From an uncultured bacterium (GTDB lineage: Bacteria; Hydrothermota; UBA3073; NMUJ01; CBEVQO01), in NCBI GenBank assembly GCA_965552055.1, contig CBEVQO010000011.1:1-23970 (forward strand): a DNA stretch of 23,970 bases, in the 5' to 3' direction. The position numbers were made by a program, and so were the translations under genes. This document shows, piece after piece, positions 6,809-22,550 of this stretch (the stretch's first letter is position 1; each line of letters begins with the position of its first letter). The notes below the pieces were generated by a model. The model had not been told where the DNA came from. It saw nothing but the letters and a program-made list of their open reading frames with translations, and did no database searches.

Positions 6809-6835
6809 ATTATATTCGGAATTTTATCTTGTCAA
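6809..6835 (-). promoter_or_regulatory. sigma70-type promoter of the giant surface protein gene (TTGACA-N15-TATAAT)
   Basis: Minus strand reads TTGACA agataaaattccgaa TATAAT aagtaaggggggtgg ATG. A second TTGACA (6849-6844) with TAAAAT 17 nt later overlaps it. Confidence 0.7.
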
Positions 6836-6845
6836 GCTAGAAATG

Positions 6846-7814
6846 TCAAAATTGATAAAAATTGATAATTTTAGTTCTGTGGGCAATCCACATCTTTAAT
6901 GGGTGCTTCCTTATCTCAGAGCCACAGCCTATTATACTATCCTCAATGTAAACTCCTTCTATCTTCGCATGCTCATAAATGATACTTCCTTTAATAACGC
7001 TATCACTTATATTTGCTCCTTCTTCAACATAGCAATAAGGACCTATAACCGAATTTTCTATCCTCGCACCCCTCACCAAACAGGGCTCTATAATCACCGA
7101 ATTTATTATTTCACCTTCAACACCGTGATATAATAATTCTTTGTTCGCATTAACCAAACCCTGCAAGGAGCCACAGTCAAGCCATTTTTTAATTTCATAA
7201 ATTTCGGTATGCTCCTCTTTGACATATAAATTTAAAGCATCGGTTAACTGATATTCACCTTTTGTCCTTATATCTTTTTTTATTATCTCTTCAAGTTTTT
7301 CAAACAATTTATCTGCATTTTTTATGTAATAAAGCCCGATAACCGCAATATTTGTCACAGGCTTTTCTGGTTTCTCAATCAAATTTATGATTTTTTTCCC
7401 ATCAACCTCTGCAACTCCGTATTTTCTTGGGTCTTCAACAACTTTACTTGCTATTTTGGAACAACCTCTTGTGAATTCTTCGTAATCGGTATCAACAATT
7501 GTATCACCAAGTATTATAAGCATTTCTCCTTTCACCTTTTCTTTTGTAAGATAAATAGCATGCCCCAAACCCAGACGCTCTTTTTGAAATACGATATCAG
7601 TATCTATTCCAAATCTTTTTTCAATCAACTCTTTAATTTCTTTTGACTCTTCACTCACAACAAGCACTATTTTATCAATCGGAAGATTTCTTATACGCTC
7701 AACTATATGATGTATAACTTCTTTCCCTGCTACTTTTATCAAAGCCTTTGGTATTACATAAGTCAAAGGTCTTAATCTCTTACCCCATCCTGCAACCGGT
7801 ATTACTGCTATCAT
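6846..7814 (-). CDS. Sugar-phosphate nucleotidyltransferase (glucose-1-phosphate thymidylyltransferase long-form-like) with C-terminal left-handed beta-helix
   Basis: N-terminal AGWGKRLRPLT..PKAL motif, QKERLGLGHA, ILGD, EKP, GEYQLTDAL, WLDCG, and hexapeptide-like C-terminal repeats (IENSVIGP, ISDSVI, IEDSIIG). Substrate cannot be determined from sequence. Confidence 0.88.
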   Translation of the reverse strand: MIAVIPVAGWGKRLRPLTYVIPKALIKVAGKEVIHHIVERIRNLPIDKIVLVVSEESKEIKELIEKRFGIDTDIVFQKERLGLGHAIYLTKEKVKGEMLIILGDTIVDTDYEEFTRGCSKIASKVVEDPRKYGVAEVDGKKIINLIEKPEKPVTNIAVIGLYYIKNADKLFEKLEEIIKKDIRTKGEYQLTDALNLYVKEEHTEIYEIKKWLDCGSLQGLVNANKELLYHGVEGEIINSVIIEPCLVRGARIENSVIGPYCYVEEGANISDSVIKGSIIYEHAKIEGVYIEDSIIGCGSEIRKHPLKMWIAHRTKIINFYQF

Positions 7815-8779
7815 TCTGATAATCTTTTTTTCAAATAATTTATTCGCTCAATAGGCGTGGGGTCAACTCCTCGTAACACTGCAAGATGATAGGAAACCCA
7901 ATCACCAAAATATACAAGATAAAAAATCCTCGAAAGAAAACTTTTACCTTCTGCAAAAATATCTTCATAAATTGTAAAATCTCTTATTATCTCTTTCACA
8001 ATCTCAAACCTTTTTTGAACTTTTTGGTGTTCATTCCCTGTTCTTAAAAATAAAACATAATAAGGCAAAGGAGGCTCTCCTATTCCAACAATTTCATTAT
8101 GATTCATTTCCGGGAAAACATTAAAGTGCGAAAATATTTTGCTGTTCTCAGCCAATTGACCTGCCCACCTTCTTGCAACGGGCATTATTCTGTCATCGCA
8201 GTAAATTATCGCAAATTTATTAAGTAATTTTGATGCCAGCCTGTGAGGAGCACCCTTTTCTGAAGAAAATTCATCCGATTTCTTTTTTAGCAACTCATAA
8301 GTTTCCTCAACTTCTTCTTTTACATCTCTTATTAATTTCAACTTTATCAAAGCAAATAAGACAGAAAAGAACAAATATCCAAGCGCACACCTAGGCTGTA
8401 AACCTGAAGGTATTTTTATAACATAATCTACTTCTTTTTCCAGCTTTCCATTGCTTGTAATCGCAATTATATTTTTTGTCCTTAACTTTGCAAAGGAAAG
8501 AGCAGATAAAGTTTCTTCTGTATTACCAGAATAACTCGATGCAATGAATAGAGTATTTTTATTTACATAAGCAGGAATTTCATAGTGTCTTACGACTTCA
8601 AAAGTAAAAGGAATTTCATTATAAAGGTATGAGCGTAGAAGGTCAGCACCGATAGCTGAGCCTCCCATCCCTGCAATCACTATATTCCTCACATTTTTAA
8701 CCCTGGGTAATCTCGTCTTCTCAACGATTTCAAATGATTTTTTAATTTGCTCCGGAAAATTTAATAAAACTTCTTTCAT
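7811..8779 (-). CDS. Bifunctional phosphoglucose/phosphomannose isomerase (PGI/PMI, SIS-domain family)
   Basis: GMGGSAIG, SSYSGNTEET, QPR, ENSK, FPEMNHNE and GVDPTPI..I..LK motifs. Strong SD (GGAGGAGGTGA) upstream. Confidence 0.92.
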   Translation of the reverse strand: MKEVLLNFPEQIKKSFEIVEKTRLPRVKNVRNIVIAGMGGSAIGADLLRSYLYNEIPFTFEVVRHYEIPAYVNKNTLFIASSYSGNTEETLSALSFAKLRTKNIIAITSNGKLEKEVDYVIKIPSGLQPRCALGYLFFSVLFALIKLKLIRDVKEEVEETYELLKKKSDEFSSEKGAPHRLASKLLNKFAIIYCDDRIMPVARRWAGQLAENSKIFSHFNVFPEMNHNEIVGIGEPPLPYYVLFLRTGNEHQKVQKRFEIVKEIIRDFTIYEDIFAEGKSFLSRIFYLVYFGDWVSYHLAVLRGVDPTPIERINYLKKRLSE

Positions 8780-8780
8780 A

Positions 8781-10523
8781 TCACCTCCTCCCGATTTCTT
8801 TCACTCTTTCATGCATTATACTTTCCATATATTCAATGACTTCTTCGTGATGCTTCATATTCATGATTTTTTCCGCAATTTCTTTTGCTTCTGCAAGGGT
8901 TATACTTCTTACGATTTTTTTTACAATAGGCACAAAAGCAGGAGGAACAGATAGCTCATCTATTCCAAAGCCTATCAGAATTGGAATAGCCAAAGGGTCG
9001 CCCGCCATCTCTCCGCATACCCCAACCCATATTCCCTCTGCATGACCGGATTCTATCGTAAGCTTTATCAGTTTTAAAACCGAAGGATGAAATGAATTAT
9101 AAAGATAAGCAACACTGGGATTTGTCCTGTCGCACGCAAGAGTATACTGTGTTAAATCATTTGTGCCAATGGAAAAGAAATTACAATATCGTGCAAGCTC
9201 ACGAGAAATCAAAGCAGCAGAAGGCGTCTCTATCATAATCCCGAACTCTATTTTCTCATCAAATTTCACATCTTCCCTCTTTAATTCTTCTTTCACTTCT
9301 TCGAGTATATCTTTAAATGCTAGTAACTCATCCACAGTTGATACCATTGGAATCATTATTTTTATATTTTTTAATGCACTTGCTCTTAATATAGCCCTTA
9401 ATTGTGCTCTCAGCATATCCTGTTTTTCGCGCAAAAGCAACCTCAAAGCTCTCAGCCCGAGTGCTGGATTTGGCTCATAACCGGAATCTGGCATCAATTT
9501 ATCTGCACCTACATCAAGAACCCTTATTATAACGGGTCTGGGATGCAATTTCCTGGCCACTTCATAATAAGTTAGAAATTGCTCCTCTTCCGATAACACT
9601 CTCCTTTTGAAAAGAAGAGCCTCTGTCCTCATAAGACCAACCCCATAAGCCCCATATTTAACAACATCTTTTACCTCTTCCGGAAATTCAATATTTGATG
9701 ATAACTCTATCTCATATCCATCTATCGTCTCACATGGCAGTTTTGTCCATTCTTCCAATCCTCTTTTATAAGCAACGAGCTTCTCTTTGCGACGCTCATA
9801 AGTGCGAAGAACATCTTCCGTAGGATTTAAAATAACTATTCCTTCATTCCCATCAACTATTAACAAATCTCCATCTTTCACATATTTTGTAAGATGCTTT
9901 AAACCCAGCACCGCAGGTATCCCCAGTGCTTTTGCCATTATAGCTATGTGCGATAACTTACTGCCAGCATCTGTCGCTATGCCCATTATTTTATCACCAG
10001 TAAATTGCGAAACATCTGTAGGGGTAAAAATAGATGCCACAGCTATGTGTTTCTCTTCAAGAAGGGATGCATCGCGGTCATAAATCTGACCCATTAAATT
10101 TGTTAAAATCCTTTCCGCAATATCTTTAACATCTATTAATCTCTCTTTTATAATCCCATCTTCAAGTGAGCCCAGAATTTCTAATATTTCGTCTGTGGCT
10201 TTTTTAAAAGCCTTTTCAGCACAATTACCTTCATTTATCAACTGAACAGTTCGCTCAAATAACTTGGGGTCCGTAACCATAGCAATCTGTGCATCGATAA
10301 TCTTTGCGAGATGTTTCTCTTTTTTCCTCAACCTGTATTTTATCTTTTCCAGATCTTTTTTTGCTTTCCTTATAGCTCTTATAAATTTCGCTACTTCACA
10401 GCAAGGCAAATCGGGTTCCCTTTCAACAATTTCTAAAGGATTACGCTTATAAACATAAACCTTGGCAATAGCTATTCCGGGAGAAGCAGGTTCACCAAAA
10501 AATTTTTTATTCTCTAATGCCAT
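8781..10523 (-). CDS. ptsI: PEP-protein phosphotransferase (PTS enzyme I)
   Basis: ASPGIAI N-terminus, active-site SHIAIMAKALGIPAV, GVGLMRTE, EPNPALGLR, MIETPSAA, FSIGTNDLTQY and VCGEMAGD. Confidence 0.96.
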   Translation of the reverse strand: MALENKKFFGEPASPGIAIAKVYVYKRNPLEIVEREPDLPCCEVAKFIRAIRKAKKDLEKIKYRLRKKEKHLAKIIDAQIAMVTDPKLFERTVQLINEGNCAEKAFKKATDEILEILGSLEDGIIKERLIDVKDIAERILTNLMGQIYDRDASLLEEKHIAVASIFTPTDVSQFTGDKIMGIATDAGSKLSHIAIMAKALGIPAVLGLKHLTKYVKDGDLLIVDGNEGIVILNPTEDVLRTYERRKEKLVAYKRGLEEWTKLPCETIDGYEIELSSNIEFPEEVKDVVKYGAYGVGLMRTEALLFKRRVLSEEEQFLTYYEVARKLHPRPVIIRVLDVGADKLMPDSGYEPNPALGLRALRLLLREKQDMLRAQLRAILRASALKNIKIMIPMVSTVDELLAFKDILEEVKEELKREDVKFDEKIEFGIMIETPSAALISRELARYCNFFSIGTNDLTQYTLACDRTNPSVAYLYNSFHPSVLKLIKLTIESGHAEGIWVGVCGEMAGDPLAIPILIGFGIDELSVPPAFVPIVKKIVRSITLAEAKEIAEKIMNMKHHEEVIEYMESIMHERVKEIGRR

Positions 10524-10770
10524 GTTCCAGTAAATCTTTTAAAGCTTTAAATGCCTCATCCTCATCCTCGCCTTCTACTCTCAAAAGAATTTTAGAACCC
10601 CTTTCAGCACCCAGTGCCAGAATATCGAGTATGCTTTTGCCATCCGCAACATAACCATCTTTTATAACCTCTACCTTTGATTTATATTTGGATGCAAGGC
10701 GCACAAACGCAGTAGCAGGACGGGCATGAATACCAAGAGTATTTTTTATTACAACAAAGCCTTCTCTCAC
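10507..10770 (-). CDS. ptsH: Phosphocarrier protein HPr
   Basis: GIHARPA (His15 site) and KSILDILALG (Ser46 site), 87 aa, GTG start. Confidence 0.96.
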   Translation of the reverse strand: MREGFVVIKNTLGIHARPATAFVRLASKYKSKVEVIKDGYVADGKSILDILALGAERGSKILLRVEGEDEDEAFKALKDLLEHGIRE

Positions 10771-10776
10771 ATAATT

Positions 10777-10803
10777 ATTTTAAATGATTTATAAAATTGT
10801 CAA
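10777..10803 (-). promoter_or_regulatory. Promoter of ptsH operon (TTGACA-N15-TAAAAT, 6 nt to GTG)
   Basis: Minus strand reads TTGACA attttataaatcatt TAAAAT aattat GTG. No SD. Confidence 0.65.
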
Positions 10804-10813
10804 GAAGAAAAAC

Positions 10814-10840
10814 TTGACAGCCAGGTATTCCCTTTATATT
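10814..10840 (+). promoter_or_regulatory. Promoter of aldehyde dehydrogenase (TTGACA-N15-TATATT, 5 nt to GTG)
   Basis: TTGACA gccaggtattccctt TATATT caaat GTG. No SD. Confidence 0.65.
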
Positions 10841-10845
10841 CAAAT

Positions 10846-12255
10846 GTGAATCTAATTTGTGGAAAATGGATTGAAAGAGAAGAGAAAATAAAAGTGATAA
10901 ATCCAGCGGATAATTCAATAGCAGGGGAAGTATCAGTAGCAACGGATGAAGATATCGAAAATGCAATAAAATCGGCACAGAATGGCTTGAAAGAAATTTA
11001 CAAATTAACATCTTACGAAAGAAGTAAAATCCTGCTCAAAACGGCTGAACTCATTGAAAAGAAAAAAGAAGATTTAGCGAGGGTTATAGTAAAGGAAGTA
11101 GGAAAAACCATAAGGGAAGCAAGGGGCGAAGTTGAGCGTGCGATTCAAACATTCACCATAGCATCGGAAGAAGCAAAAAGGATTTATGGCAAAACTATAC
11201 CTTTTGACAGCGTGCCTCAGGGCAAAGGGCGTTTCGGATTTTACATAAGGGTGCCAGCAGGTATTGTGCTCGCAATTTCACCTTTCAATTTCCCTCTAAA
11301 TCTCGTGGCTCATAAAGTAGCACCAGCAATAGCAGCTGCAGATAGCGTGATACTCAAGCCTTCATCTCTTACCCCTTTAATAGCAATAGAACTTGGTAAA
11401 ATTTTGTTAGAAGCTGGTTTGCCAGAAAAAGCGATTTCCATTTTGAACGGTCCGGGTAGCAGAGTAGGCGAGGCATTAATTAGACGCCCAGAAATAAGGG
11501 TGATAAGCTTTACAGGAAGCTTGGATGTTGCGAACCGCATTTTCAAAGTAGCAGGTTTCAAAAGGATAATAATAGAAGCAGGTTCAAATTCTGCCTGCGT
11601 TGTAATGGATGACGCAGATATTCCTTTTGCAGCAAAAAGAATTGTAACAGGTGCTTTCACGCTCGCAGGTCAGGTATGTATCTCTGTCCAGAGGGTTTAT
11701 ATCCACGAAAAAATATTTGACAAATTCATGAATGAAATTTTAAATCTGACAAAAAATTTAAAAGTAGGCAACCCAATGGAAGAGGATACAGATGTCGGAC
11801 CCATGATTTCTGAGGATGCAGCAAAGAGAGCAGAAAAATGGATAGAAGAAGTAGTAAATATGGGGGCAAAAATATTATGTGGTGGCAAAAGAAAAGGCAC
11901 ATTTTTAGAACCAACAATTTTGCTCAATGTACCCCATTCTTCACACATCTATAAAGATGAAGCATTTTGTCCTGTTATATGCGTGGAAAAAATCAAAAAT
12001 ATCGATGAAGCAATAAAACTGGTGAATGACTCAAAATATGGCTTGCAGGCAGGTATTTTCACAAAAGATTTAAAAACCGCTTTAAAATTCGCTAAGGAAG
12101 TGGAAGTAGGTGGTGTAAATATCGGCGATGTGCCAACTTTCCGTGCAGACCCCCAGCCCTATGGCGGAGTAAAAGGAAGCGGACTCGGTAGAGAAGGACC
12201 TGCTTTTGCAATAGAAGAATTAACCGAAATAAAATCTGTTTGCTTTAACTTATAA
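10846..12255 (+). CDS. NAD(P)-dependent aldehyde dehydrogenase (lactaldehyde dehydrogenase/y4uC-like branch)
   Basis: ISPFNFPLNL, LKPSS, FTGS, catalytic Glu in IEAGSNS, catalytic Cys in AGQVCISVQR, EAFCPV, YGLQAGIFT and PYGGVKGSGLGREG. Confidence 0.93.
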   Translation: MNLICGKWIEREEKIKVINPADNSIAGEVSVATDEDIENAIKSAQNGLKEIYKLTSYERSKILLKTAELIEKKKEDLARVIVKEVGKTIREARGEVERAIQTFTIASEEAKRIYGKTIPFDSVPQGKGRFGFYIRVPAGIVLAISPFNFPLNLVAHKVAPAIAAADSVILKPSSLTPLIAIELGKILLEAGLPEKAISILNGPGSRVGEALIRRPEIRVISFTGSLDVANRIFKVAGFKRIIIEAGSNSACVVMDDADIPFAAKRIVTGAFTLAGQVCISVQRVYIHEKIFDKFMNEILNLTKNLKVGNPMEEDTDVGPMISEDAAKRAEKWIEEVVNMGAKILCGGKRKGTFLEPTILLNVPHSSHIYKDEAFCPVICVEKIKNIDEAIKLVNDSKYGLQAGIFTKDLKTALKFAKEVEVGGVNIGDVPTFRADPQPYGGVKGSGLGREGPAFAIEELTEIKSVCFNL

Positions 12256-13683
12256 CACCTTCAAAACGATAAATGTTATATCATCGAACTGTGGTTCTCC
12301 TTTTGTAAAATTTTCTATTAATTCTATGACTTTATCTTTAATTTCGTCCGCAGGAGCTTTTGTATTCTTTTTTATTATATCAAGAAGACGATGTTCTCCA
12401 AATTCTTCTTTATCCGGATTCTTTGCTTCGATTATGCCATCGGTGTAAAAGAAAAGCAAATCTCCCTTTTTCAGCTGAATCTCTCTCTTCTCCAACGCAC
12501 TTTTATATTTCTCCACGGATAAAAATGGCACACCCACAGGGGTACCTTTTGTTTTTATAGTTTCTAATTTATCCCTTTCGCTATCATAATAAATTAAGGA
12601 TGGATGCCCTGCATTACATAATTTCATCTTCTTGGTGTTAACATCAATCACAGCATTAATACATGTTATAAACATTCCCCTGGGCATATCTTCTTTTAAA
12701 TGTTGATGAAGCAAGGTCAAAAGTTCATCTGGCTCTGTAACTTCTACTTTTATGTGTCTCACGATTGCATGAAACATAGCCATCAGAGGCAAACTCGCCA
12801 CACCCTTACCCGAAATATCTGCTATTATTATTTTACATTTGTTATCGTACTCAAACACATCATAATAATCGCCACCTACTTCCTTCGCAGGTTGATAAAA
12901 AGCTTCTATAGAAAAGCCGCTTACTTCCGGAATCCTATCGGGCAATAATCTGGTATGCACATCTCTAACTATATTCATTTCTTCGTTTAATTTTTTATAG
13001 ATGGATAATTGCTTATCCTTTATTTTGCCAAGCATACTGTTTATAGCATCACTCAGCGCTCCCGCTTCATCCGGTGATTTTATTTCAAATTCTTTCATCT
13101 TTTCGGCATCAAACATCTCCATCTCTTTTATCAAACTACGCAAAGGCTTAACAATAAAAACACCAGTTATACCCGCCAATACCATGCCTATTATCACAGC
13201 AATAAGCGAAAAAATAAACATTTTTTTCCAGAACTTCTTCAAATGCTCTTTTATAACCCCGATAGATAAATCTATCAGTGTATAGCATAGAACTTTTCCT
13301 TTGTGTTTCAAAGGAACTTTAATATCACCCTTTATTTCTTTAACTCTTTTATTCAACATATTTGCATCTGTATGCGCTATTATCACGCTATCCCTTGATA
13401 TAATACTTATTGCCTCGACACCTGGATTTTTTTGTTTCATCACATTTATCACATTAAGTATAGGTACGAGGGATGTTTTTTCGCCTTTTTCGAATTTCAA
13501 ATAATATTGCGCTATCATATTGTTTATATCACGCGCTAAAATTTGTCCCTTTTTCATAAACGATTCGAACACCAATTTCCTCTCCCTAGCAGCTGTATAG
13601 CGCGTTATCGCAATCATAATAGCTGTAATCAACGCACCCGTAAAGATAACAAATTTTACAGGAATGCTAAATTTTAACTTCAT
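12250..13683 (-). CDS. Membrane-bound HAMP-domain PP2C/SpoIIE (RsbU-like) serine phosphatase
   Basis: Two TM helices flank a small extracytoplasmic domain, followed by HAMP (IVKPLRSL...DEAGALSDAINSM) and PP2C motifs VGGDYYD, IADISGKG, NAGH, YTDGIIEA and DDITF. The ATG at 13683 overlaps the upstream stop (TGATG) and has GAGGAGG upstream; the ORF track uses TTG 13686. Confidence 0.92.
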   Translation of the reverse strand: MKLKFSIPVKFVIFTGALITAIMIAITRYTAARERKLVFESFMKKGQILARDINNMIAQYYLKFEKGEKTSLVPILNVINVMKQKNPGVEAISIISRDSVIIAHTDANMLNKRVKEIKGDIKVPLKHKGKVLCYTLIDLSIGVIKEHLKKFWKKMFIFSLIAVIIGMVLAGITGVFIVKPLRSLIKEMEMFDAEKMKEFEIKSPDEAGALSDAINSMLGKIKDKQLSIYKKLNEEMNIVRDVHTRLLPDRIPEVSGFSIEAFYQPAKEVGGDYYDVFEYDNKCKIIIADISGKGVASLPLMAMFHAIVRHIKVEVTEPDELLTLLHQHLKEDMPRGMFITCINAVIDVNTKKMKLCNAGHPSLIYYDSERDKLETIKTKGTPVGVPFLSVEKYKSALEKREIQLKKGDLLFFYTDGIIEAKNPDKEEFGEHRLLDIIKKNTKAPADEIKDKVIELIENFTKGEPQFDDITFIVLKVL

Positions 13684-14642
13684 CAATACCTCCTCTTTAT
13701 TAATTCTACAACCGCACCCTTACCATAGGGTGTTATACCCAATTTTTTGAGCTCTTCTTCATTTATCTTCGGTATCCCTATATTTACCTCATCGAAAATT
13801 TTCCTCATCAAAGCAAGACCCCTTCCGTGATGACCCTTTTTGGGCGCTGTAAATCCCCTTCCATAGTCCACAAAGTAAATCACCAGCTCATTTTTACCGA
13901 GAAATCTCTGTAACCTCACTTTTCCTATTTCTTTACCACCGTATCCATGGTTTATCGCATTGGTCATCAATTCCCTCGCTACCATTTCAATATGCGATTC
14001 CTTAATCGATGTAATACCAGCTTCCACACATATCGCCTGAAAAAGAAATTGATATACCACAGAAGTAAATTTACGCTGAGCCGGAATGATTATCTCATTT
14101 GAACTTTTTATCATATCAAAATATTCCTGCATTTTATCAAGCTCTGTGATAACATTTTCTTCGCCAACATATTCCGCAAGAATTTTAACCGTACGCTTAA
14201 CCATAGAAGATAAGTGCGCCTCCATAGGGGTGAGCTTTTCCTTCGCTCTCTTAAATCTTTCAAAAAATTCATCATCAATGGATACCTTCTCCTTTATTTC
14301 TTCAACCGATTCATAAAAAGTAAGCCACTCCATTATCCCCAGTAATTCAAAAGCATCTTTAATATCCACAGGTAATTTCGATATCAATAAATAATCTTTC
14401 TTACTGTCTTCCAGCATCATTATAAAACCAAGACCCGATGAACTTATAAAATTAACATTCTCCATATCAACTATGTAGTTATAGTATTTGGGCATCCATA
14501 TTTGATTAAAGAATTCTCTCTGAAACATCATAATAGGGTCGGTATCCATAGAGCCTGCAAAGATTAATCCCATCAATCCCTTCTCATAGTGATAAATGCA
14601 AATAACCTCCATCCTTTCATATTTAAGATATTTCTCCTCCAT
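13683..14642 (-). CDS. Fusion of STAS anti-anti-sigma domain (N-terminal) and RsbW/SpoIIAB-type serine kinase HATPase domain (C-terminal)
   Basis: STAS signature IVDMENVNFISSSGLG...IKDAFELLGI. Kinase boxes ELMTNAINHG (N), VDYGRGF (G1) and GRGLALMRKIFDEV (G2). ATG 14642 preferred over GTG 14645 from promoter geometry. Confidence 0.85.
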   Translation of the reverse strand: MEEKYLKYERMEVICIYHYEKGLMGLIFAGSMDTDPIMMFQREFFNQIWMPKYYNYIVDMENVNFISSSGLGFIMMLEDSKKDYLLISKLPVDIKDAFELLGIMEWLTFYESVEEIKEKVSIDDEFFERFKRAKEKLTPMEAHLSSMVKRTVKILAEYVGEENVITELDKMQEYFDMIKSSNEIIIPAQRKFTSVVYQFLFQAICVEAGITSIKESHIEMVARELMTNAINHGYGGKEIGKVRLQRFLGKNELVIYFVDYGRGFTAPKKGHHGRGLALMRKIFDEVNIGIPKINEEELKKLGITPYGKGAVVELIKRRY

Positions 14643-14648
14643 CACAAA

Positions 14649-14675
14649 ATTTTACACAAAATAAAAATATGTCAA
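14649..14675 (-). promoter_or_regulatory. Promoter of STAS-kinase/PP2C operon (TTGACA-N15-TAAAAT, 6 nt to ATG 14642)
   Basis: Minus strand reads TTGACA tatttttattttgtg TAAAAT tttgtg ATG. No SD. Confidence 0.65.
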
Positions 14676-14686
14676 GCAAAAAATGA

Positions 14687-14713
14687 TTGACAAAGATAAA
14701 ATTTCATTAGTAT
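14687..14713 (+). promoter_or_regulatory. Promoter of TonB-dependent receptor operon (TTGACA-N15-TAGTAT, 5 nt to ATG)
   Basis: TTGACA aagataaaatttcat TAGTAT aaaga ATG. Alternative -10 TATAAA at 18-bp spacing. No SD. Confidence 0.6.
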
Positions 14714-14718
14714 AAAGA

Positions 14719-16875
14719 ATGATTAATTTTTTGATAACAGCAATAATATGGGGAATGGTCGTAGAAAGTGGAACAGAAAAACCCATAAAAAGTGCCCTTT
14801 TGGTAATAAAGGAAAGAAATTTAACAATACTAACAGATAAAGAGGGAAAATTTCATTTCAACAATTTAAAGACAGGAGAATATACATTAAAAATCACACA
14901 TACGGGTTATAAGGAGAAAGAAATAAAGTTAAAAATAAGGCACGAAGATGATAAAATTTTTCTAAAAATACTGTTATCACCGAGAATCTATTCACTCTCA
15001 AAGATAGTAGTCACAGGTGGTTTAACAATTTATGATGATATAACGGGTAAGACAGGTGTCACAAAGGAAGATATTTTAACAACTGCAGGTTGTGCAGGAG
15101 ATGTCTTCTGGACGCTACAAACCCTGCCGGGTATCAGTGGCACAGGTGAAGGCGCTGTTATAGCATTACAGGGCGGTGAGCCCGACGAAATAAAAGTTTA
15201 TGTAAATGAAGCCTTTTTACCTCGACCATTTTATTACGAAGGTGCGGGCGGAGGACTTTTTAGCCTCGTGAACACAACCCTTTTACGCAAAGGCGACCTT
15301 TATACCGCAGGTTATAGCGCTTCTTTCGGCGATGCACTGTCAGGCGTTTTAAATCTAAAACTGAGAAGAGGAGTTAAAAAAGGCGGAAAATTGGACATCA
15401 GTATGGCGGGCGCAGAAATATCAATCGAAAGAAAAAATTTAATACTAAGTGCGGGAAGAAGTTATACAGACCTTTTCTACAGATTACTTTATAAACTGCA
15501 TGGAGATACTTCATGGACTTTCATATCTTTTCCTCAAAACTGGTGGTGTCAGGGTATAAAAACATTTTTGCTCAAAAATAAAGTGATAAATCTATTTGCA
15601 ATTTTCGGTGGCGACTTATCAGCAATAAGATTACCGAAAGAATACGGAACAGATATTTACTCGAGAAGCACAAAAGGAACAATAGGAACAGATTTCACAC
15701 AAAAATTTAAAAATTTAATCATAAATTCAGTTGCTTCATGGGATTATTATTACACTTATAACGAATTCACAGGCGGAATTTTAAAACAATGGGAAAAAAC
15801 ACAGGGCTTAAATCTTCGCTCTAAATTACAGATAGAATTCAAAAGAATTTTCGTAGAATCAGGCTTTTCAATTAGATTACATAATCCTTCATATTACGCT
15901 TATTATCCAAAAGACGCAAAAGGAACGGAATTCTGGGACCCGGATTATCCACATGATACAACACAAAAAGATACATCTACTTTAAAATTAGCACAGTGGA
16001 ACCTTTTAAAATTTAAGATTTCCGAAAAATTATTTCTGGAATCCGGAATCTACGGAAGTTATCTCCGGTATAACGGACAAAAATATTTTGACCCAAGAGG
16101 CGCTATTCTATTTATCCCTTCCGAAAATCATAAAATAAGATTCGGAATAGGGAAATATCATCAGTTTCCGCCTTTTGTAAAACGATATGCACCATTTTTG
16201 TTAACAAAGCCACATTTAAAACCCCAGAAATCAAATCATTATGCTATAAGTTATGATGGAAAATTCGGAAAATATTCTGTATTCTTTGAAATCTATAAAA
16301 AAGATTACGGAAATTTACCTGTCTATGATACAGCAAATAATATTTACAGTGAAGGAAAAGGATATGCAAAAGGATTTGGTTTCCTGATTCGGAAATTAAA
16401 AGGCAAAATATCTGGCTGGATTTCGTATTCATATCTTTCTTCAAAAAGAGAATTTAAAAAGGGAGAAGGTTTAACTTCTTCAAATTATGACCTCACTCAT
16501 ATATTACAAATTATAATAAATTATAAGATTTCGGAAAAATATAAACTCGGATTGAAATTGCGCTATGCCACAGGCAAACCTTATACTCCTCTCTCTGGCG
16601 TAGATACCCTGATTTACAACGGAGAGACCTACATCCGACCAGTATGGGGAAAAACCAATTCAAAAAGATTACCCGACTATTTTAAAATTGACCTCAGATT
16701 TGTGCATAAATATAAAATGTTCGGAAAACCCTGTCTCAGCTATACAGAAATCTGGAATTTAACTTCGCACAAAAATTACCTTGGAGTAAGCTATAGTAAA
16801 AATTATGATAAAGAAGAATTTGTGCAATGGATGGGTGGGATAATGGTCTTTGGTGGTTTTATAATGAAATTTTAA
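14719..16875 (+). CDS. TonB-dependent outer-membrane receptor with N-terminal carboxypeptidase-regulatory-like domain
   Basis: G.V.E..T..PI..A.....TD..G.F.F.NL..GEY.L.I...GY N-domain; plug motifs DVFWTLQTLPGI and GYSASFGDALSGVL; barrel motifs DPR, SGWISYSYL, RYATGKPYTP, RLPDYFKIDLR; terminal Phe. Confidence 0.9.
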   Translation: MINFLITAIIWGMVVESGTEKPIKSALLVIKERNLTILTDKEGKFHFNNLKTGEYTLKITHTGYKEKEIKLKIRHEDDKIFLKILLSPRIYSLSKIVVTGGLTIYDDITGKTGVTKEDILTTAGCAGDVFWTLQTLPGISGTGEGAVIALQGGEPDEIKVYVNEAFLPRPFYYEGAGGGLFSLVNTTLLRKGDLYTAGYSASFGDALSGVLNLKLRRGVKKGGKLDISMAGAEISIERKNLILSAGRSYTDLFYRLLYKLHGDTSWTFISFPQNWWCQGIKTFLLKNKVINLFAIFGGDLSAIRLPKEYGTDIYSRSTKGTIGTDFTQKFKNLIINSVASWDYYYTYNEFTGGILKQWEKTQGLNLRSKLQIEFKRIFVESGFSIRLHNPSYYAYYPKDAKGTEFWDPDYPHDTTQKDTSTLKLAQWNLLKFKISEKLFLESGIYGSYLRYNGQKYFDPRGAILFIPSENHKIRFGIGKYHQFPPFVKRYAPFLLTKPHLKPQKSNHYAISYDGKFGKYSVFFEIYKKDYGNLPVYDTANNIYSEGKGYAKGFGFLIRKLKGKISGWISYSYLSSKREFKKGEGLTSSNYDLTHILQIIINYKISEKYKLGLKLRYATGKPYTPLSGVDTLIYNGETYIRPVWGKTNSKRLPDYFKIDLRFVHKYKMFGKPCLSYTEIWNLTSHKNYLGVSYSKNYDKEEFVQWMGGIMVFGGFIMKF

Positions 16876-16887
16876 AAAGGAGGCGTT

Positions 16888-17643
16888 ATGCGTAAATATT
16901 TACCGATATTTCTACTGGTATTAATCGCCTGTAAAAGGGAGACGGTTTCGCTCAAATGCACGCTTACACTGGAAGACGAAAAGGTAATAGTGTGCAGGGT
17001 GAAAAACGAAGCCAAAACAGAAGCTAAAAGAATACAGCTGAAAATAGAAGCACTAAAACCCTATGAAAATGTAGTAAGATATAAAGGTGAAATATCAAAA
17101 CTCAAAAAAGGCGAAGAAAGACAGGTAAAAATCGAATTCAAGAAACCAAAGAAAATAACAGAAAAAGAATTAATAATAGTGGCAACAGCAAAGGTAAAAG
17201 AGAAAAAATTTGCAGATACATTGAAAATAGCACTAAAAGAGGAGAAAAAGAAAGAAATTAAAAAAGCTAAAGAAATTAAAGAAGTTAAAAAACCGCAAAA
17301 AAAGGAGAAAAAAATCAAAAAAGTAGAAAAAATTAAAAAGGTTGAGAAACCCGTATCAAAAGTAGATAAAGAGCCACCAAAGATATATTTAATATTTCCG
17401 GATACCGCAATGATAAAAGAAATACCGAAAACTACCTTACTCATAAAAGGAAGGGTTGAAGATGAATCAGGAGTAGCCTATGTCAAAGTAGCAGGGAAAG
17501 AATGTAAGCTATCAAAAACACCTTTCGGATTAACATTCCAGACGGAAATCAAACTGAAAAAGGGACTCAACATAATATCGATTGAAGCTGAGGATAAAAA
17601 AGGTAATTTGAAAAGATTTAAGATAAGAGCTCTCGGCAGATAA
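16888..17643 (+). CDS. Putative lipoprotein: Ig-like domain, Lys/Glu-rich linker, C-terminal Ig/cadherin-like beta-sandwich
   Basis: Signal MRKYLPIFLLVLIA-C with lipobox, SD AGGAGG, and C-terminal DKEPPKI...IKGRVEDESGVAYVKV...LKKGLNIISIEAEDKKGN pattern. Confidence 0.8.
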   Translation: MRKYLPIFLLVLIACKRETVSLKCTLTLEDEKVIVCRVKNEAKTEAKRIQLKIEALKPYENVVRYKGEISKLKKGEERQVKIEFKKPKKITEKELIIVATAKVKEKKFADTLKIALKEEKKKEIKKAKEIKEVKKPQKKEKKIKKVEKIKKVEKPVSKVDKEPPKIYLIFPDTAMIKEIPKTTLLIKGRVEDESGVAYVKVAGKECKLSKTPFGLTFQTEIKLKKGLNIISIEAEDKKGNLKRFKIRALGR

Positions 17644-18124
17644 TATCATAGATTTTTTCAACAATCGCCAAATTATCATAAAATTTGCCTGTTATCTCAT
17701 ATAAGGTGTCAATTTTTTCCCTTAAATTTTTCGGAAAAATTTCCTTTTTTAAATTTGTATTGATTCCGATTCCTATTAATGTTCTTTTCTTCAAATTTTC
17801 TATTAAAATACCGCATACCTTTTTGCCATGGTAAAGAATATCATTTGGAGGTTTTATCTCAAAATTTTTATCTGTCTCTTCTCTTAAAACTTTACAAATT
17901 ATTTTTGCTACTTTTTGTGATAATTTTTCGGGTTCTAAATTTATTTTCTTTATGCAAAATGTACACCACAGTCCGCCTTTTGGTGAATACCAGTCGCGCG
18001 CTCGCCTGCCCCTACCCGATAGCTGCTCATCTGCCATAACAACAAAATCCCCATAAATTTTTGATGATAATTCACGGGCAAGATCTTGCGTTGAATCTAT
18101 TTTATCATACTTTATAAGTAACAT
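17618..18124 (-). CDS. birA: Biotin-protein ligase, catalytic domain only
   Basis: IDSTQD, ADEQLSGRGR..R.WYSP.GGLW, IKPPNDI, KKVCGILIE and IGIGIN. No N-terminal HTH and no C-terminal domain. Confidence 0.88.
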   Translation of the reverse strand: MLLIKYDKIDSTQDLARELSSKIYGDFVVMADEQLSGRGRRARDWYSPKGGLWCTFCIKKINLEPEKLSQKVAKIICKVLREETDKNFEIKPPNDILYHGKKVCGILIENLKKRTLIGIGINTNLKKEIFPKNLREKIDTLYEITGKFYDNLAIVEKIYDIICRELLS

Positions 18125-19643
18125 TTCTTATTATAAATTCGGCAATCAACAGCAATAAAAGGAAAATTAAAAAATAAGGTCGCAAACTACGGGTAGATAT
18201 CTCGGAAGATAAATTTTTACGAACTACTTCTTTGCCAAATTTCAAATTGACAGAAAATTTATACAAATTCTCAACAGAATAATTGCCTGACTTTTCCGGA
18301 TAAAATGTTAAATAATAATTTTTTCCGATTTTTTCGGGATACAGGAAAAAGGGACCTTCGGGAGTTTCAATCCTATACGCTCTATACTCTTTTACCCGTA
18401 ATTTAACGCATTCTTCCACCCGGTAATCACAAAGGGAAAATCTTTCACCTGTTAAATAAAAAATAAGATTTAATAAAAACTGGATAAAACCTGCACTTAC
18501 AGCTATTTCATTTTCCTCTGGATTAAAATCAAAATGCAAAAGTAAATTATTCATGGGTAGCAACTCGATAGCGGGCTCACCAGAAGAAAATGAAGAAAGA
18601 ACTTCACCGGAAGGCAAAGAAAATTTGTAAGAAAAAAACCTAACCTCATCGTAATACGGGAATTTTAAATCATCGTCAATTTCTTTTAAATAAAAAACAC
18701 CATTTTTATCGCCTTTCTGCGTTATAATCGCATTTTTAACACCTTCTGGCAGTGATTTATTCAAAATAAATAAAACATCATAAGAAGATGGTAGCCCTTC
18801 TTTCAAATATTTAACCTGAAGAAAGGGTATTTGTGAGAGAGCAGTTTTTACAAAAAATGCAGATAAAGTATCTCCAATTATACAAATCTTCAAACTGCGT
18901 GGAAGTGCAATTGTAAAATAAAAAATGTTATCAAATGTAATATCATCACCCATAATTTTAAAATAGCCAGAATTAAAGCCACTACTTAAATCCCAAAAGT
19001 AAAATTTAAACACCTTCTTTTCATAAGGTGAAAATAAAATTTCCCTTTTAACATGAAAAATATCCGAAGTAAAGAATATTTTTACATTTCTTTCAGATAA
19101 ATTTTTGATGGATAAAGCTATTGTATCAATTGCTTCAAAATACACACTGTCTATTTTTACATTAACAGGTTTCGGAAGTTCTATCAATTTGTATTTTGAA
19201 TTTTGAATTTTGTCCTTATAGGTTATTATCACGGGTGTAAGACCCGAAAAGCTTTTATCGTCGAACAAAAGCTCATAAGGCACGCATTCTTCTTTTTCTC
19301 CTTTTGCAAAGAAATATTTGTCAAATTTTTTTGCTTTCTTGATGGCAAGTTTTAAATTTTTCTCCATTGTATAGGAGTTATCAATTATTGCGATTTTTTC
19401 TTTGTGAATTATCACTGGATTTGCAAAAATGAATATTAAAGTGAGCAACGAAAATTCTCTTATTATGAGAAGTATTAAATTTTTAAGCCGTAGAAATCTT
19501 GATAAACCTTTTTGTGCTTCTTTTAGTAACATTATAGATGGGAAGTAAAATTTTTTTGTGGTCAATTTTTTAAAAAGATGAATCAAAACTGGCAATGGTA
19601 AAAGAAAAAGAAAATAAAGTATATTTGGATTTAAAAACTTCAC
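18105..19643 (-). CDS. BatA (aerotolerance regulator N-terminal) domain membrane protein
   Basis: MKFLNP..L..L.LLPLPVLIHLF...FPS..LL...LILLIIR...FANP signature, degenerate vWA start (IIDNSYTM) and C-terminal TM LRPYFLIFLLLLLIAEFII. Confidence 0.82.
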   Translation of the reverse strand: MKFLNPNILYFLFLLPLPVLIHLFKKLTTKKFYFPSIMLLKEAQKGLSRFLRLKNLILLIIREFSLLTLIFIFANPVIIHKEKIAIIDNSYTMEKNLKLAIKKAKKFDKYFFAKGEKEECVPYELLFDDKSFSGLTPVIITYKDKIQNSKYKLIELPKPVNVKIDSVYFEAIDTIALSIKNLSERNVKIFFTSDIFHVKREILFSPYEKKVFKFYFWDLSSGFNSGYFKIMGDDITFDNIFYFTIALPRSLKICIIGDTLSAFFVKTALSQIPFLQVKYLKEGLPSSYDVLFILNKSLPEGVKNAIITQKGDKNGVFYLKEIDDDLKFPYYDEVRFFSYKFSLPSGEVLSSFSSGEPAIELLPMNNLLLHFDFNPEENEIAVSAGFIQFLLNLIFYLTGERFSLCDYRVEECVKLRVKEYRAYRIETPEGPFFLYPEKIGKNYYLTFYPEKSGNYSVENLYKFSVNLKFGKEVVRKNLSSEISTRSLRPYFLIFLLLLLIAEFIIRNVTYKV

Positions 19644-19648
19644 TCTTT

Positions 19649-19675
19649 ATGATAATCATAAAATATTTTTGTCAA
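19649..19675 (-). promoter_or_regulatory. Promoter of BatA-domain/birA operon (TTGACA-N15-TATCAT, 5 nt to GTG)
   Basis: Minus strand reads TTGACA aaaatattttatgat TATCAT aaaga GTG. No SD. Confidence 0.65.
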
Positions 19676-19690
19676 ATTAAAAAAATAAGC

Positions 19691-19720
19691 TTGACATTCG
19701 GATTATTCCGATATTATAAT
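19691..19720 (+). promoter_or_regulatory. Promoter of clpC operon
   Basis: TTGACA (19691-96) with TATTAT at 15-bp spacing (19712-17) or TATAAT at 18-bp spacing (19715-20). ATG at 19726, no SD. Confidence 0.7.
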
Positions 19721-19725
19721 GTGAG

Positions 19726-22158
19726 ATGAATTATGAATTTACCCAAAGGGTTCGTCGTATTTTTGATATAGCCCAGCAAGAGGCAAGGCGCTATGGCAGT
19801 GACTCTGTTGGTACAGAGCACATCTTACTCGGGCTTGTTCGTTCTCACGGAGGAGTAGCGCTTGCAGCACTATCCAACATGGGAGTTGACATAGAGCAGC
19901 TCGAGCAGGATGTAATCGAGTTTATAAGGGAAAATGTATCGGGCATTCCTGTTCCTCATGTTCATTTCAATGACGAAGCGAATCAGCTTGTGAATCTCGC
20001 AAGAATGGAAGCAAAGGATATGGGGGACAATTACATAGGCTCCGAGCACCTTCTACTCGCGATGATGAGATTCAAAGGCTCAAATGCATTTAATATACTT
20101 GCAAGACATGGAATAACTTACGAAGAAGTAAGAAACGAAATCCTTGCAGTAAGAAGGGAGCCAGATAGAAAGCATTTTGCAAAGAAAAGGGTCAAAACTC
20201 CTTATCTCGACCACTTCTGCAGGGATATAACTAAAATGGCAAAAGAAAATAAACTTGACCCTGTGATCGGAAGAGAAAGGGAAATCGAAAGAGTGATGCA
20301 AATACTGTGTAGAAGAAAGAAAAATAATCCTGCTCTAATAGGAGAACCTGGTGTCGGTAAAACAGCGATTGTAGAAGGATTGGCTCAAAGAATAGCAGAA
20401 GGTAAAGTACCACGCCAATTAATGGATATGCGAATACTGCAGCTTGACCTAGCTGCAATCGTAGCAGGAACAAAATACAGGGGACAATTTGAAGAAAGAT
20501 TAAAAGGAATTCTGGAAGAATTAAGAAGAACAGGAAATATCATAATCTTCATCGATGAATTGCATACGATTGTTGGGGCAGGAGCTGCTGAAGGTGCGAT
20601 AGATGCATCAAATATGCTGAAACCTGCGCTTGCGAGAGGTGAAATACAATGCATAGGAGCAACAACATTATCGGAATACAGGAAATACATTGAGAAAGAT
20701 GGTGCACTTGAGCGCCGTTTCCAGCCAGTTTATATTTCACCGCCATCGGTTTCCGAAACAATCGAAATATTAAAAGGATTAAAAGAAAAATATGAACAGC
20801 ATCACAATGTGGTTTACACAGAAGAAGCACTCGTTGCAGCTGCTACTCTTGCAGATAGATACATAACAGATAGATTTCTGCCTGACAAAGCAATAGATGT
20901 TATGGATGAAGCAGGAGCAAGGGTTAAGCTGGAACGCCTGCCTGCTATATCAAAAGAACTTGATAAACTTGAGAAAAAACTCGCAGAAATACAAAAATTA
21001 AAGGATAAAGCAGTTGAAGAACAAAACTTTGAAGAAGCAGCAAGATTGAGAGACGAAGGAATTAAAATTCAAAAGAAAATCAGGGAGATTAAAGAAAAAG
21101 AGGAGCAAATTGTAAAAAAAGTTACAGAAGAACACATTCGCCAGGTAATATCCCTGTGGACCGGGATACCCCTTACCAAGCTCGAACAGAAAGAGCAAGA
21201 GCGCTTATCGAAGATGGAAGAGGAACTGAAAAAGAAAGTAGTTGGTCAGGATGAAGCCATTGCAGCACTTTGCAAAGCAATAAGGCGAAACAGACTGGGA
21301 TTAAAAGACCCAAGAAGACCCGTTGGTTCATTCCTGTTCCTTGGACCCACTGGTGTTGGTAAAACCTACCTCGCAAAGAAACTTGCAGAATTTTTGTTTG
21401 ATTCAGAAGCAGCACTTATAAGAATCGATATGTCAGAGTATATGGAGAAATTCAATGTATCAAGATTAATAGGTGCACCACCGGGATATGTGGGATACGA
21501 GGAAGGAGGACAATTAACAGAAAAAGTAAGAAGAAGACCTTATTCTGTTGTATTATTTGATGAAATAGAAAAAGCTCATCCAGAGGTATTTAACATACTT
21601 TTACAGGTACTGGAAGACGGAGTATTGACCGATAGCTTCGGAAGAAATGTGAACTTCAAAAATACAATCCTTATAATGACATCCAATCTCGGGACAGAAG
21701 GGTTGAAGAAAAAATCAATAGGATTTGAAATAGAAACAGAAGAGCTACAATCCTATGAGCAAATGAAAGAAGAATTGATAGAAAAAGCCAAAAAATTCTT
21801 CAGACCGGAATTTTTGAATCGTCTTGATGATATAATCGTGTTTAGACCGCTTACAAAGGAAACGATGTTTAAGATAGTTGATATTTTACTCGATGAATTA
21901 CAGCAAAGATTGAAAGAAAGAGAAATAGAAATTGAAGTAACACAGGGAGTTAAAGAGCTTCTTGTAGAAAAAGGTTTTGACCCGTTCTATGGTGCTCGTC
22001 CGATAAGGCGTGCGATACAAACAATTATCGAAGACCCGCTTGCAGATGAAATATTGAAAACAGGATATGAAAAAGGAATAAAATTCTTATTGGAAAGAGA
22101 AGGTGATAAAGTGAAATTTATTTTGAAGAAAAGAAAAAAGGAGTTAATAAGTGCTTAA
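19726..22158 (+). CDS. clpC: ATP-dependent Clp protease ATP-binding subunit ClpC
   Basis: Two Clp-N repeats ([18 protein letters not shown]), Walker A GEPGVGKT and [17 protein letters not shown] pore loop, UVR middle domain ([13 protein letters not shown]), SIGF ClpP-docking loop and GARPIRR. Confidence 0.96.
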
Positions 22159-22354
22159 AACAACGGCGGATATTGTAAAAGATGTATCAGAAGTGACAGG
22201 TTACTCCCAACGAGATGTTAACATTATAATCCTGAAGTTTTTAGAAAAAATAAAGGAAGAACTTAAAAAAGATAAAGTTGTTGTGATAAATGGTTTAGGT
22301 GAATTTAAATTAAGCGATGATAATAAAAAAGTTATAGAATTTAAGCCAGAATAG
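22151..22354 (+). CDS. Short HU/IHF-family DNA-binding protein lacking the beta-ribbon arm
   Basis: HU-like helices (TADIVKDVSEVTGYSQRDV..II..FLEKIKEELKK), V.INGLGEF strand and terminal FKP. SD AAGGAG; GTG start overlaps the clpC stop. Confidence 0.78.
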   Translation: MLKTTADIVKDVSEVTGYSQRDVNIIILKFLEKIKEELKKDKVVVINGLGEFKLSDDNKKVIEFKPE

Positions 22355-22362
22355 GAGGAGTT

Positions 22363-22467
22363 ATGCCCTGTGGTAGAAAGAGAAAATTAAAAAAAGTTAA
22401 GCGTCATAAATATAAGAAGAGAAGGAAAGCGATGCGTCATAAGAAGAAATTCAAGGAGGGACATTAA
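22363..22467 (+). CDS. Small basic AURKAIP1/COX24-domain peptide (30S ribosomal protein bS22/mS38-like), 34 aa
   Basis: Strong SD AGGAGGAG, then MPCGRKRKLKKVKRHKYKKRRKAMRHKKKFKEGH-TAA, matching the MP.G.KRK.....HK.KKR....RHKKK family pattern. Below the ORF-track length cutoff. Confidence 0.85.
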   Translation: MPCGRKRKLKKVKRHKYKKRRKAMRHKKKFKEGH

Positions 22468-22470
22468 AGT

Positions 22471-22543
22471 GCGCCCGTAGCTCAACTGGATAGAGCGGCG
22501 GATTCCGGATCCGCAGATGAAGGTTCGAGTCCTTTCGGGCGCA
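22471..22543 (+). tRNA. tRNA-Arg (anticodon CCG), CCA not encoded
   Basis: Acceptor GCGCCCG/CGGGCGC, D arm GCTC/GAGC with A20, anticodon arm GCGGA-TTCCGGA-TCCGC (CCG at 22505-07), T arm GAAGG-TTCGAGT-CCTTT, discriminator A at 22543. Confidence 0.96.
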
Positions 22544-22550
22544 GAAAAGA

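Follow-up and report, generated by a model that had tools for sequence, protein, structure and literature searches.

Housekeeping promoters of the sigma70/SigA type are built from a TTGACA -35 box, a TATAAT-like -10 box, an upstream A-tract and a TG element, they serve tRNA and rRNA genes, and the spacer between their boxes, at 17 bp, is regarded as all but universal, set by how far apart sigma2 and sigma4 sit on the core enzyme. Spacers were predominantly 17 bp in 49 species with mapped transcription start sites, as seen by a model trained on E. coli, and the lineages named in a figure legend of that study include no WOR-3 (PMC12641261). Consensus boxes in E. coli give high expression at spacers of 15–19 bp, with an optimum at 17 (PMC8695583), and stable-RNA promoters with 16-nt spacers are described in the same species (PMC9303308). 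Bacteroidota have no rpoD and use a short sigma factor, sigmaABfr, as the primary one, on promoters with boxes at -33 and -7 (PMC7366714). The present analysis concerns promoter spacing in a stretch of 23,970 nucleotides (the window), contig CBEVQO010000011.1 (here C11) of assembly GCA_965552055.1, from an uncultured bacterium of the phylum Hydrothermota. The source genome (G000; 2.23 Mb, 15 contigs, 97% complete) likely belongs to a thermophile; named homologues indicate WOR-3. Hundreds of its predicted housekeeping promoters, including all seven in the window, have textbook boxes set 15 bp apart.

The promoters of G000 appear, by position and motif, to act like sigma70 elements, but depart from them in spacer length and in the placing of the extended -10 TG. 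Shared with the canonical type are the TTGACA and TATAAT-like boxes, the A-tract, the TG element, the use at tRNA and rRNA genes, a transcription start 6–7 nt below the -10 box (as leaderless starts suggest) and a dnaG-linked RpoD with regions 1.1 to 4. Unlike sigma70/SigA promoters, the mode is 15 rather than 17 bp with essentially no independent 17-bp class, TG lies at -16/-15 rather than -15/-14, and RpoD is changed at R441, V454 and E458. Likeness to Bacteroidota is found in a geometry below 17 bp and in the sister family f2 (genomes G001, G002 and G003), which seems to be without rpoD and has a TAnnTT -10 box; the short sigma of WOR-3 may also belong with sigmaABfr. G000, in contrast, keeps RpoD, has TAWAAT rather than TAnnTTTG and a full TTGACA, and its spacing is much more sharply defined and shorter by one base. 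Two relatives with 16-bp spacers, G035 and G014, share the short spacer and canonical boxes with G000, and G035 also shares the TG at -16/-15 and the beta' substitution E42D. The spacer of G000 is one base shorter still, and whereas 16 bp in E. coli marks a regulated minority, 15 bp is the norm here.

Among 493 intergenic TTGACA hexamers of G000, TAnnnT follows at 15 bp in 290, at 16 in 45, at 17 in 62 and at 18 in 22; 42 of the 62 sites in the 17-bp class also carry TAnnnT at 15, and 280 of the 290 15-bp pairs face an open reading frame (ORF) on the same strand. This genome-wide histogram, which the initial annotation of the window had proposed as a check, has a sharp peak at 15. The peak is not due to chance: the 622 intergenic segments (146,737 nt) hold 269 TTGACA-N15-TAnnnT pairs, with 41, 60 and 20 at 16, 17 and 18 bp, and 30 dinucleotide-preserving shuffles of these segments yield a mean of 1.5 +/- 1.2 and a maximum of 5 pairs at 15 bp. 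Where TTGACA touches a called ORF (n = 1290), the 15-bp class numbers 100 vs 16–48 at other distances, an excess that probably represents promoters hidden by over-long ORF calls. With the narrower TANAAT, whole-genome counts at spacers of 14 to 18 bp are 12/261/49/21/9, a distribution that does not follow the 17 +/- 1 bp of sigma70, and 13 of the 21 sites at 17 also have TA in the 15 register. Base frequencies after TTGACA, taken with no condition on the -10 box, peak at T22 (84%), A23 (80%) and T27 (67%). A search anchored on translation starts (TAnAAT followed 5–6 nt on by a start codon that opens at least 80 codons; n = 253) finds TTGACA at 15 bp in 115 cases, at 16 in 14, at 14 and 18 in one each and at 17 in none. 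Four near-identical promoter-like blocks (G000:C1:281212, 340322 and 379337; C6:20570) match at 17 and also have TA in the 15 register; three of the four, possibly CRISPR leaders, edge long ORF-free stretches.

By position alone, the 15-bp pairs stand at stable-RNA and core genes, as is typical of housekeeping promoters. Divergently started genes have a 15-bp pair in 199 of 364 cases, a 17-bp pair in 36 and none in 122. For tRNA and tmRNA genes, a 15-bp pair lies within 120 nt of 23 of 47 (three of these being second genes of a tandem pair), none has a pair with 14, 16, 18 or 19 bp, and six have one with 17 bp, four of which overlap a 15-bp pair. The presumed rRNA operon, a GC-rich ORF-free stretch on contig C5, is preceded by two tandem 15-bp pairs. 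The -35 box is strict (TTGACA in 326 of 381 intergenic TTGACN-N15-TAnnnT sites) and the -10 box is TATAAT-like, with TAAAAT in 102 and TATAAT in 90 of the 290 sites and, by class, TAnAAT in 218 and TAnnTT in 67 of the 326. An A-tract lies in its canonical place, 7–9 nt upstream of the C just before TTGACA, and the start codon follows the -10 box by 5 nt in 123 and by 6 nt in 51 of 365 sites. Because the outer sides of both boxes are in canonical register, the missing bases must lie inside the spacer, whose sequences are diverse (258 of 261 distinct), 76% AT and positionally biased. Sigma28/FliA promoters are conventionally written with a 15-bp gap; the base frequencies show TTGACA/TAWAAT rather than a TAAA-like -35 and a GCCGATAA-like -10. 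Taken together, it is very probable that the predicted sites are real 15-bp housekeeping promoters. Leaderless-looking starts (ATG or GTG 5–6 nt past the -10 box) account for about half of the sites in G000 (174/365), 19/48 in G035 and 1/52 in G013, a 17-bp relative.

The short spacer is a trait of one order, seen in all four of its genomes. Within a phylum set of 272 WOR-3-like genomes including G000, for 40 of which 16- and 17-bp counts were also made, G000 has 261 copies of TTGACA-N15-TANAAT, and none of the other 271 has more than 17. The eight genomes of family f4 have a sharp 17-bp peak (152–277 per genome, 0–3 at 15), other lineages peak at 16 (counts at 15/16/17 of 6/249/21 in G035 and 5/100/45 in G014), and many others lean to 16. 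Counts in f2 are low with this pattern since its -10 box is TAnnTT. In G002 (270 kb of ~1.2 Mb; 78 intergenic TTGACN), 28 pairs are found at 15 bp, 16 at 16 and none at 17. A scan of all 272 genomes for TTGACN-N15-TANNTT gives 125, 136, 122 and 91 in G000 to G003 vs 38, 12, 11 and 11 for reversed-pattern controls; among the counts read outside the order, G199 has the largest excess (46 vs 28). The four genomes are kin and not independent, so the 15-bp spacer counts as one origin. Spacer histograms covered this phylum and two Bacteroidota genomes. Since the peak is specific to one order, a lineage-specific property of the transcription machine is the best reading. The lineage-specific polymerase or sigma factor suggested by the initial annotation is partly supported, by a 15-bp peak confined to the order, but not in the form of a core indel or a shorter sigma linker. 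A scan for close relatives with G000 peptides returned four unrelated loci, with a likeness in region 2.4 that is biased by peptide selection; the best non-self RpoD is 35% identical to that of G000.

G000 encodes RpoD (575 aa), a 272-aa group-1-like sigma without region 1.1 (the short sigma; G000:C5:66580-67398), FliA and two small sigmas. RpoD (G000:C7:57373-59100) lies after a gene that is presumably dnaG, judging from its N-terminal sequence. Its regions 1.1, 1.2, 2, 3 and 4 are recognized by five Pfam families over cut-off; against TIGR02393 it scores 284.8 bits, under the 354-bit cut-off, a weak test given that only 70 of the 272 phylum genomes pass. Identity to outgroups is 50.8% for RpoD vs 56–63% in class members, 53.3% vs 49–60% for RpoB, 56.4% vs 55.5–59.5% for RpoC and 43.2% vs 36.8–43.6% for the short sigma; by these sequence comparisons RpoD is selectively accelerated and RpoB and RpoC are normal. 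Sixteen of 81 conserved RpoD columns are changed, with a cluster at 441–446 and with R441K, V454P and E458N. A one-residue deletion in sigma3 is unique among 37 RpoDs. The shortened sigma2–sigma4 geometry initially envisaged is not seen in the sigma3.2–sigma4 linker, which is two residues longer; the deletion is in sigma3. At about residues 16–120 of RpoD (gene at L002:490-2217) region 1.1 seems to be tandemly duplicated: an extra look-alike segment of ~50 residues is present that neither E. coli nor any of the six relatives compared has, while Pfam reports region 1.1 as one stretch. A horizontal origin of the gene was considered and rejected: a FastTree grouping with another class was not upheld, IQ-TREE does not resolve the placement, and the non-conserved region matches class members.

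Recognition of the canonical T-15 G-14 of the extended -10 element falls to residues R441, V454 and E458 (PMC4593229). In the 365 G000 sites, TG occurs at -16/-15 in 115 and at the canonical -15/-14 in 19; G035 has it at -16/-15 in 22 of 48 sites, and the 17-bp genome G013 at -15/-14 in 32 of 52. At 55 G000 sites with 16-bp spacers, TG stands at -17/-16 in 14 vs -16/-15 in 8. Across 41 genomes, shifted vs canonical TG counts are 101 vs 29 in G000 and 138 vs 27 in G035, and the shifted form is also dominant in family f3. No single sigma residue predicts the shift consistently across these genomes. In family f15, the RpoDs L035 and L041 (G030 and G036) show an independent change at the same sigma2.4–3.0 patch (R441K, D445E).

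In the core enzyme, alignments of 37 RpoB and 33 RpoC sequences contain no G000-private indel in the beta flap, beta' zipper, zinc-binding domain, lid, clamp helices or dock, so the search for lineage-specific indels in the RpoB flap and RpoC zipper that had been recommended came back empty. Nine positions carry changes common to G000 and f2, counted over columns that are conserved in E. coli and in no fewer than 90% of other WOR-3; among them are beta K890R (flap) and beta' E42D (zipper), and beta' R47K occurs in G000 alone. A Tyr–Arg pair of the zipper touches the -17 phosphate, its arginine being R47 (PMC4593229; numbered R48 in PMC3173786). A shorter beta-i9 was rejected as the cause, as it is common to f3, f5, f6 and f7 and the long form also occurs in 16-bp lineages. 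As for gene order, rpoB and rpoC are unlinked in f2, on different contigs (G001–G003), and are fused in one 2612-aa open frame on G025:C37 (L084).

Family, protein and synteny searches did not find rpoD in any of the three f2 genomes (66–99% complete, 80–130 contigs), vs 254 of 272 genomes in the phylum, the 15 further genomes without a hit being spread over families in which RpoD is present. Both f2 loci available have dnaG followed by an unrelated gene, and the sigmas found are the short group-1-like sigma and one ECF (extracytoplasmic function)-like sigma. The gene was probably lost in f2 independently of Bacteroidota. In a tree with sparse outgroups and no RpoS or SigB, the short sigmas of WOR-3 and two Bacteroidota primary sigmas fall on one side of a 99/97 split from RpoD. 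Two Bacteroidota genomes have a TTG-N19-TA peak, equivalent to a 16-bp hexamer spacer, in 36 of 100 and 18 of 50 among the matches listed (own count, on 150 of 350 matches). The f2 motif is a relaxed TTGACN with TAnnTT (21/28) and TG at -16/-15 in 1 of 27, which brings it closer to the sigmaABfr motif (-33 TTTG, -7 TAnnTTTG) than G000, where that motif was not recovered. The G000 motif of strict TTGACA, TG and TAnAAT resembles that of the 16-bp genome G035 and differs from that of f2.

The explanation favored here, with a probability of roughly 0.55, is that the housekeeping holoenzyme has been re-tuned by protein changes, and not by DNA topology, to a spacer 2 bp shorter than usual, and that its reader in G000 is the dnaG-linked RpoD. 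TTGACA/TAWAAT boxes 15 bp apart would then be working housekeeping promoters at most predicted starts, RpoD would act on a core with small order-specific changes (E42D in the beta' zipper, joined by R47K in G000 alone, and K890R in the beta flap), and the substitutions would cause the shift. A cause within the polymerase proteins is likely. RpoD is preferred for G000 because the motif is unlike f2 and like G035, and because the protein is intact with its changes concentrated at spacer-proximal contacts. Several observations weigh against this explanation. The f2 genomes have 15/16-bp promoters but rpoD was not found in them, which excludes RpoD as a cause acting across the order; a cause common to both families would have to be sought in the core, in the short sigma or in a component not seen. 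The short sigma, too, is without R441, V454 and E458, so these residues do not identify the promoter reader. G023 and G029 have changed V454/E458 but an unshifted TG (27 vs 29 and 11 vs 26), f3 combines a retained E458 with a shifted TG, and the f15 RpoDs are as diverged (21/86 and 14/84 columns) yet go with a spacer peak at 16. Fast evolution of RpoD could equally be decay. In the core, the order-specific substitutions are conservative, E42D and K890R are each shared with a 16-bp genome (G035 and G029, respectively), and the overall change in G000 (17/287 and 15/378) is within the range of its relatives. Either both sigmas sit on a short-tuned core or the short sigma reads promoters across the order; the former, with RpoD in G000, is preferred, and the latter is rather doubtful. 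Tentatively, the order may have broken the 17-bp rule with a polymerase built for 15 bp and been caught mid-switch of its primary sigma, f2 having dropped rpoD for a Bacteroidota-type short sigma while G000 keeps a remodelled RpoD.

In the rival account based on the short sigma, this Bacteroidota-type factor became primary in the order's common ancestor and drew spacers down to 15–16 bp, with rpoD lost in f2 and decaying or secondary in G000. One cause would cover the whole order, and the account draws on the sigma complement of f2, on the grouping with Bacteroidota primary sigmas whose promoters peak at the 16-bp equivalent, on a 3.2–4 linker ~3 residues shorter than that of SigA, and on the good conservation of the short sigma in G000 and f2 (43% to outgroups) next to an accelerated RpoD. 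It is nonetheless unlikely, given that the G000 motif (TAnAAT 218/326, strict TTGACA, TG) is unlike the f2 TAnnTT without TG, that G000 RpoD is intact and dnaG-linked with five Pfam regions and a duplicated region-1.1-like segment, and that most relatives have the short sigma, f4 with its sharp 17-bp peak among them, and it was not found in G023 and G029, which peak at 16. At the completeness and fragmentation of the f2 genomes, moreover, the loss of rpoD stands as 'not found' and not as proven. An accessory factor specific to the order, binding RNA polymerase or bending DNA and realigning the boxes at nearly all promoters, would suit the lack of a core indel and the short spacer under two apparently different sigmas, for which a shared third component fits, as well as the AT-richness and positional biases of the spacers. 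The diversity of those spacers, with no operator-like motif beyond TG, makes it quite improbable; a search confined to CarD found none in G000 or four relatives, where the sole PF02559 match is in a Mfd-sized frame of 946–1098 aa.

Topology offers a different route to the same spacing, in which an ordinary holoenzyme would find the right -35/-10 angle at 15 bp because reverse gyrase keeps the DNA relaxed or overwound. G000, G001 and G002 do encode reverse gyrase, and relaxation favors 15-nt spacers in E. coli (PMC9303308), but a GyrA-family gene is also present in all three, and none of the other reverse-gyrase genomes among the 41 peaks at 15 (15/16/17 counts of 3/2/22 in G026, 0/2/30 in G038 and 3/44/27 in G029). 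G038 keeps its 17-bp peak although no gyrase was found in it. By the twist model of PMC9303308, 15 bp needs a sigma of ~+0.065 and full relaxation buys one base; the length of the spacer makes a minor difference to supercoiling sensitivity (PMC8695583). The account as a whole is very improbable, and reverse gyrase as the cause is rejected in view of the 17/16/17 peaks in G026/G029/G038 and by the twist arithmetic. G038 (4 contigs, 99% complete) has reverse gyrase with no GyrA/ParC-family match found, which is unusual for a bacterium if real. Least probable of all is an artefact of register or tuning, in which the -10 box used by a canonical 17-bp enzyme would be a degenerate one two bases further down, or 15 bp would damp over-strong consensus promoters. 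AT-rich DNA does follow the -10 box, 42 of the 290 sites have TAnnnT in both registers, and 15-bp consensus promoters are able to drive expression in E. coli (PMC8695583), so that the earlier description of 15 bp as poorly used by E. coli was too strong. T is not preferred, however, at position -7 of the 17 register (42% T vs 44% A), that register would leave only 3–4 nt before leaderless starts, and f4 has as many consensus promoters at 17 (152–277 per genome), which argues that a strong consensus needs no damping.

In the window, 22 TTGACA hexamers occur, of which seven have TAnnnT exactly 15 nt downstream, and these seven coincide with the seven predicted transcription-unit starts derived from the ORF list and family matches (Table 1). 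The positions and -10 hexamers first reported for these pairs are all correct, as is the statement that TAnnnT at 17 is absent from all seven, and the reservations made at the time also stand, namely the 18-bp alternatives at clpC (TATAAT) and at the TonB-dependent receptor gene (TATAAA) and the separate 17-bp pair near the giant gene. Five of the seven promoters have a start codon 5–6 nt past the -10 box, and clpC is the single ambiguous case.

Table 1. Predicted promoters of the window, with start codons of the genes behind them (the first coordinate of each -35 box is the first T of TTGACA)
Feature	Position	Strand	-35 box	-10 box	Start codon
Giant-gene promoter	6809..6835	-	6835-6830	TATAAT 6814-6809, 15-bp spacer	ATG at 6793, 15-nt gap after -10 with a purine-rich, Shine-Dalgarno-like stretch
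Alternative pair overlapping the giant-gene promoter	6821..6849	-	6849-6844	TAAAAT after 17 nt (sole 17-bp pair in the window)	
Promoter of ptsH-ptsI-PGI-nucleotidyltransferase operon	10777..10803	-	10803-10798	TAAAAT 10782-10777	GTG at 10770, 6 nt past -10; likely leaderless
Promoter of aldehyde-dehydrogenase-like gene	10814..10840	+	10814-10819	TATATT 10835-10840	GTG at 10846, 5 nt past -10; likely leaderless
Promoter of STAS/HATPase and SpoIIE genes	14649..14675	-	14675-14670	TAAAAT 14654-14649	GTG 3 nt past -10 and in-frame ATG 6 nt past -10
Promoter of TonB-dependent receptor gene	14687..14713	+	14687-14692	TAGTAT 14708-14713	ATG at 14719, 5 nt past -10; likely leaderless
Promoter of BatA-domain gene	19649..19675	-	19675-19670	TATCAT 19654-19649	GTG at 19643, 5 nt past -10; likely leaderless
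clpC promoter	19691..19720	+	19691-19696	TATTAT 19712-19717 (15 bp) or TATAAT 19715-19720 (18 bp)	ATG 8 nt after the 15-bp -10, 5 nt after the 18-bp -10

The clpC spacer is filled by a perfect 14-bp inverted repeat (19698-19711), possibly a local repressor site, with no second exact intergenic copy across the G000 genome. Six of the promoters form three divergent pairs (10798-10819, 14670-14692 and 19670-19696) with their -35 boxes back-to-back at distances of 10, 11 and 15 bp, an arrangement in which the two polymerases would use common upstream DNA. The giant gene (2-6793, minus strand) runs off the contig and encodes a secreted-type protein of at least 2264 aa with DUF2341 and repeated modules that weakly match reelin subrepeat B. 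After clpC, at 22150-22544 on the plus strand, two short ORFs below the 80-aa cut-off, taken to be an HU-like frame and a tiny Lys/Arg-rich frame, are followed by a tRNA-Arg and a ParB-like gene; an Rfam scan of the window found one tRNA and nothing else.

No report of a genome-wide 15-bp housekeeping spacer was found in the literature, in a search that left out most subscription journals and the supplement of PMC12641261; among the matches listed, one, on Ehrlichia sigma32, contains the phrase '15 bp spacer'. Textbook boxes with a sharp 15-bp mode, about 70 degrees of rotation and 7 angstrom short of the usual arrangement, suggest that the spacer ruler can evolve. With relatives at 17, 16 and 15 bp and no core indels, what sets spacer length becomes a finite swap problem, and, if the order's polymerase is indeed built for 15 bp, the phylum series (f4 at 17 bp, G035 at 16 bp, G000 at 15 bp) can reveal the few residues responsible. 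The finding bears on promoter prediction and heterologous expression in uncultured lineages and might give a partly orthogonal class of housekeeping promoters. The probable loss of rpoD in f2 offers a second case for the study of primary-sigma replacement and, if true, would make this family an independent repeat of the Bacteroidota sigma switch.

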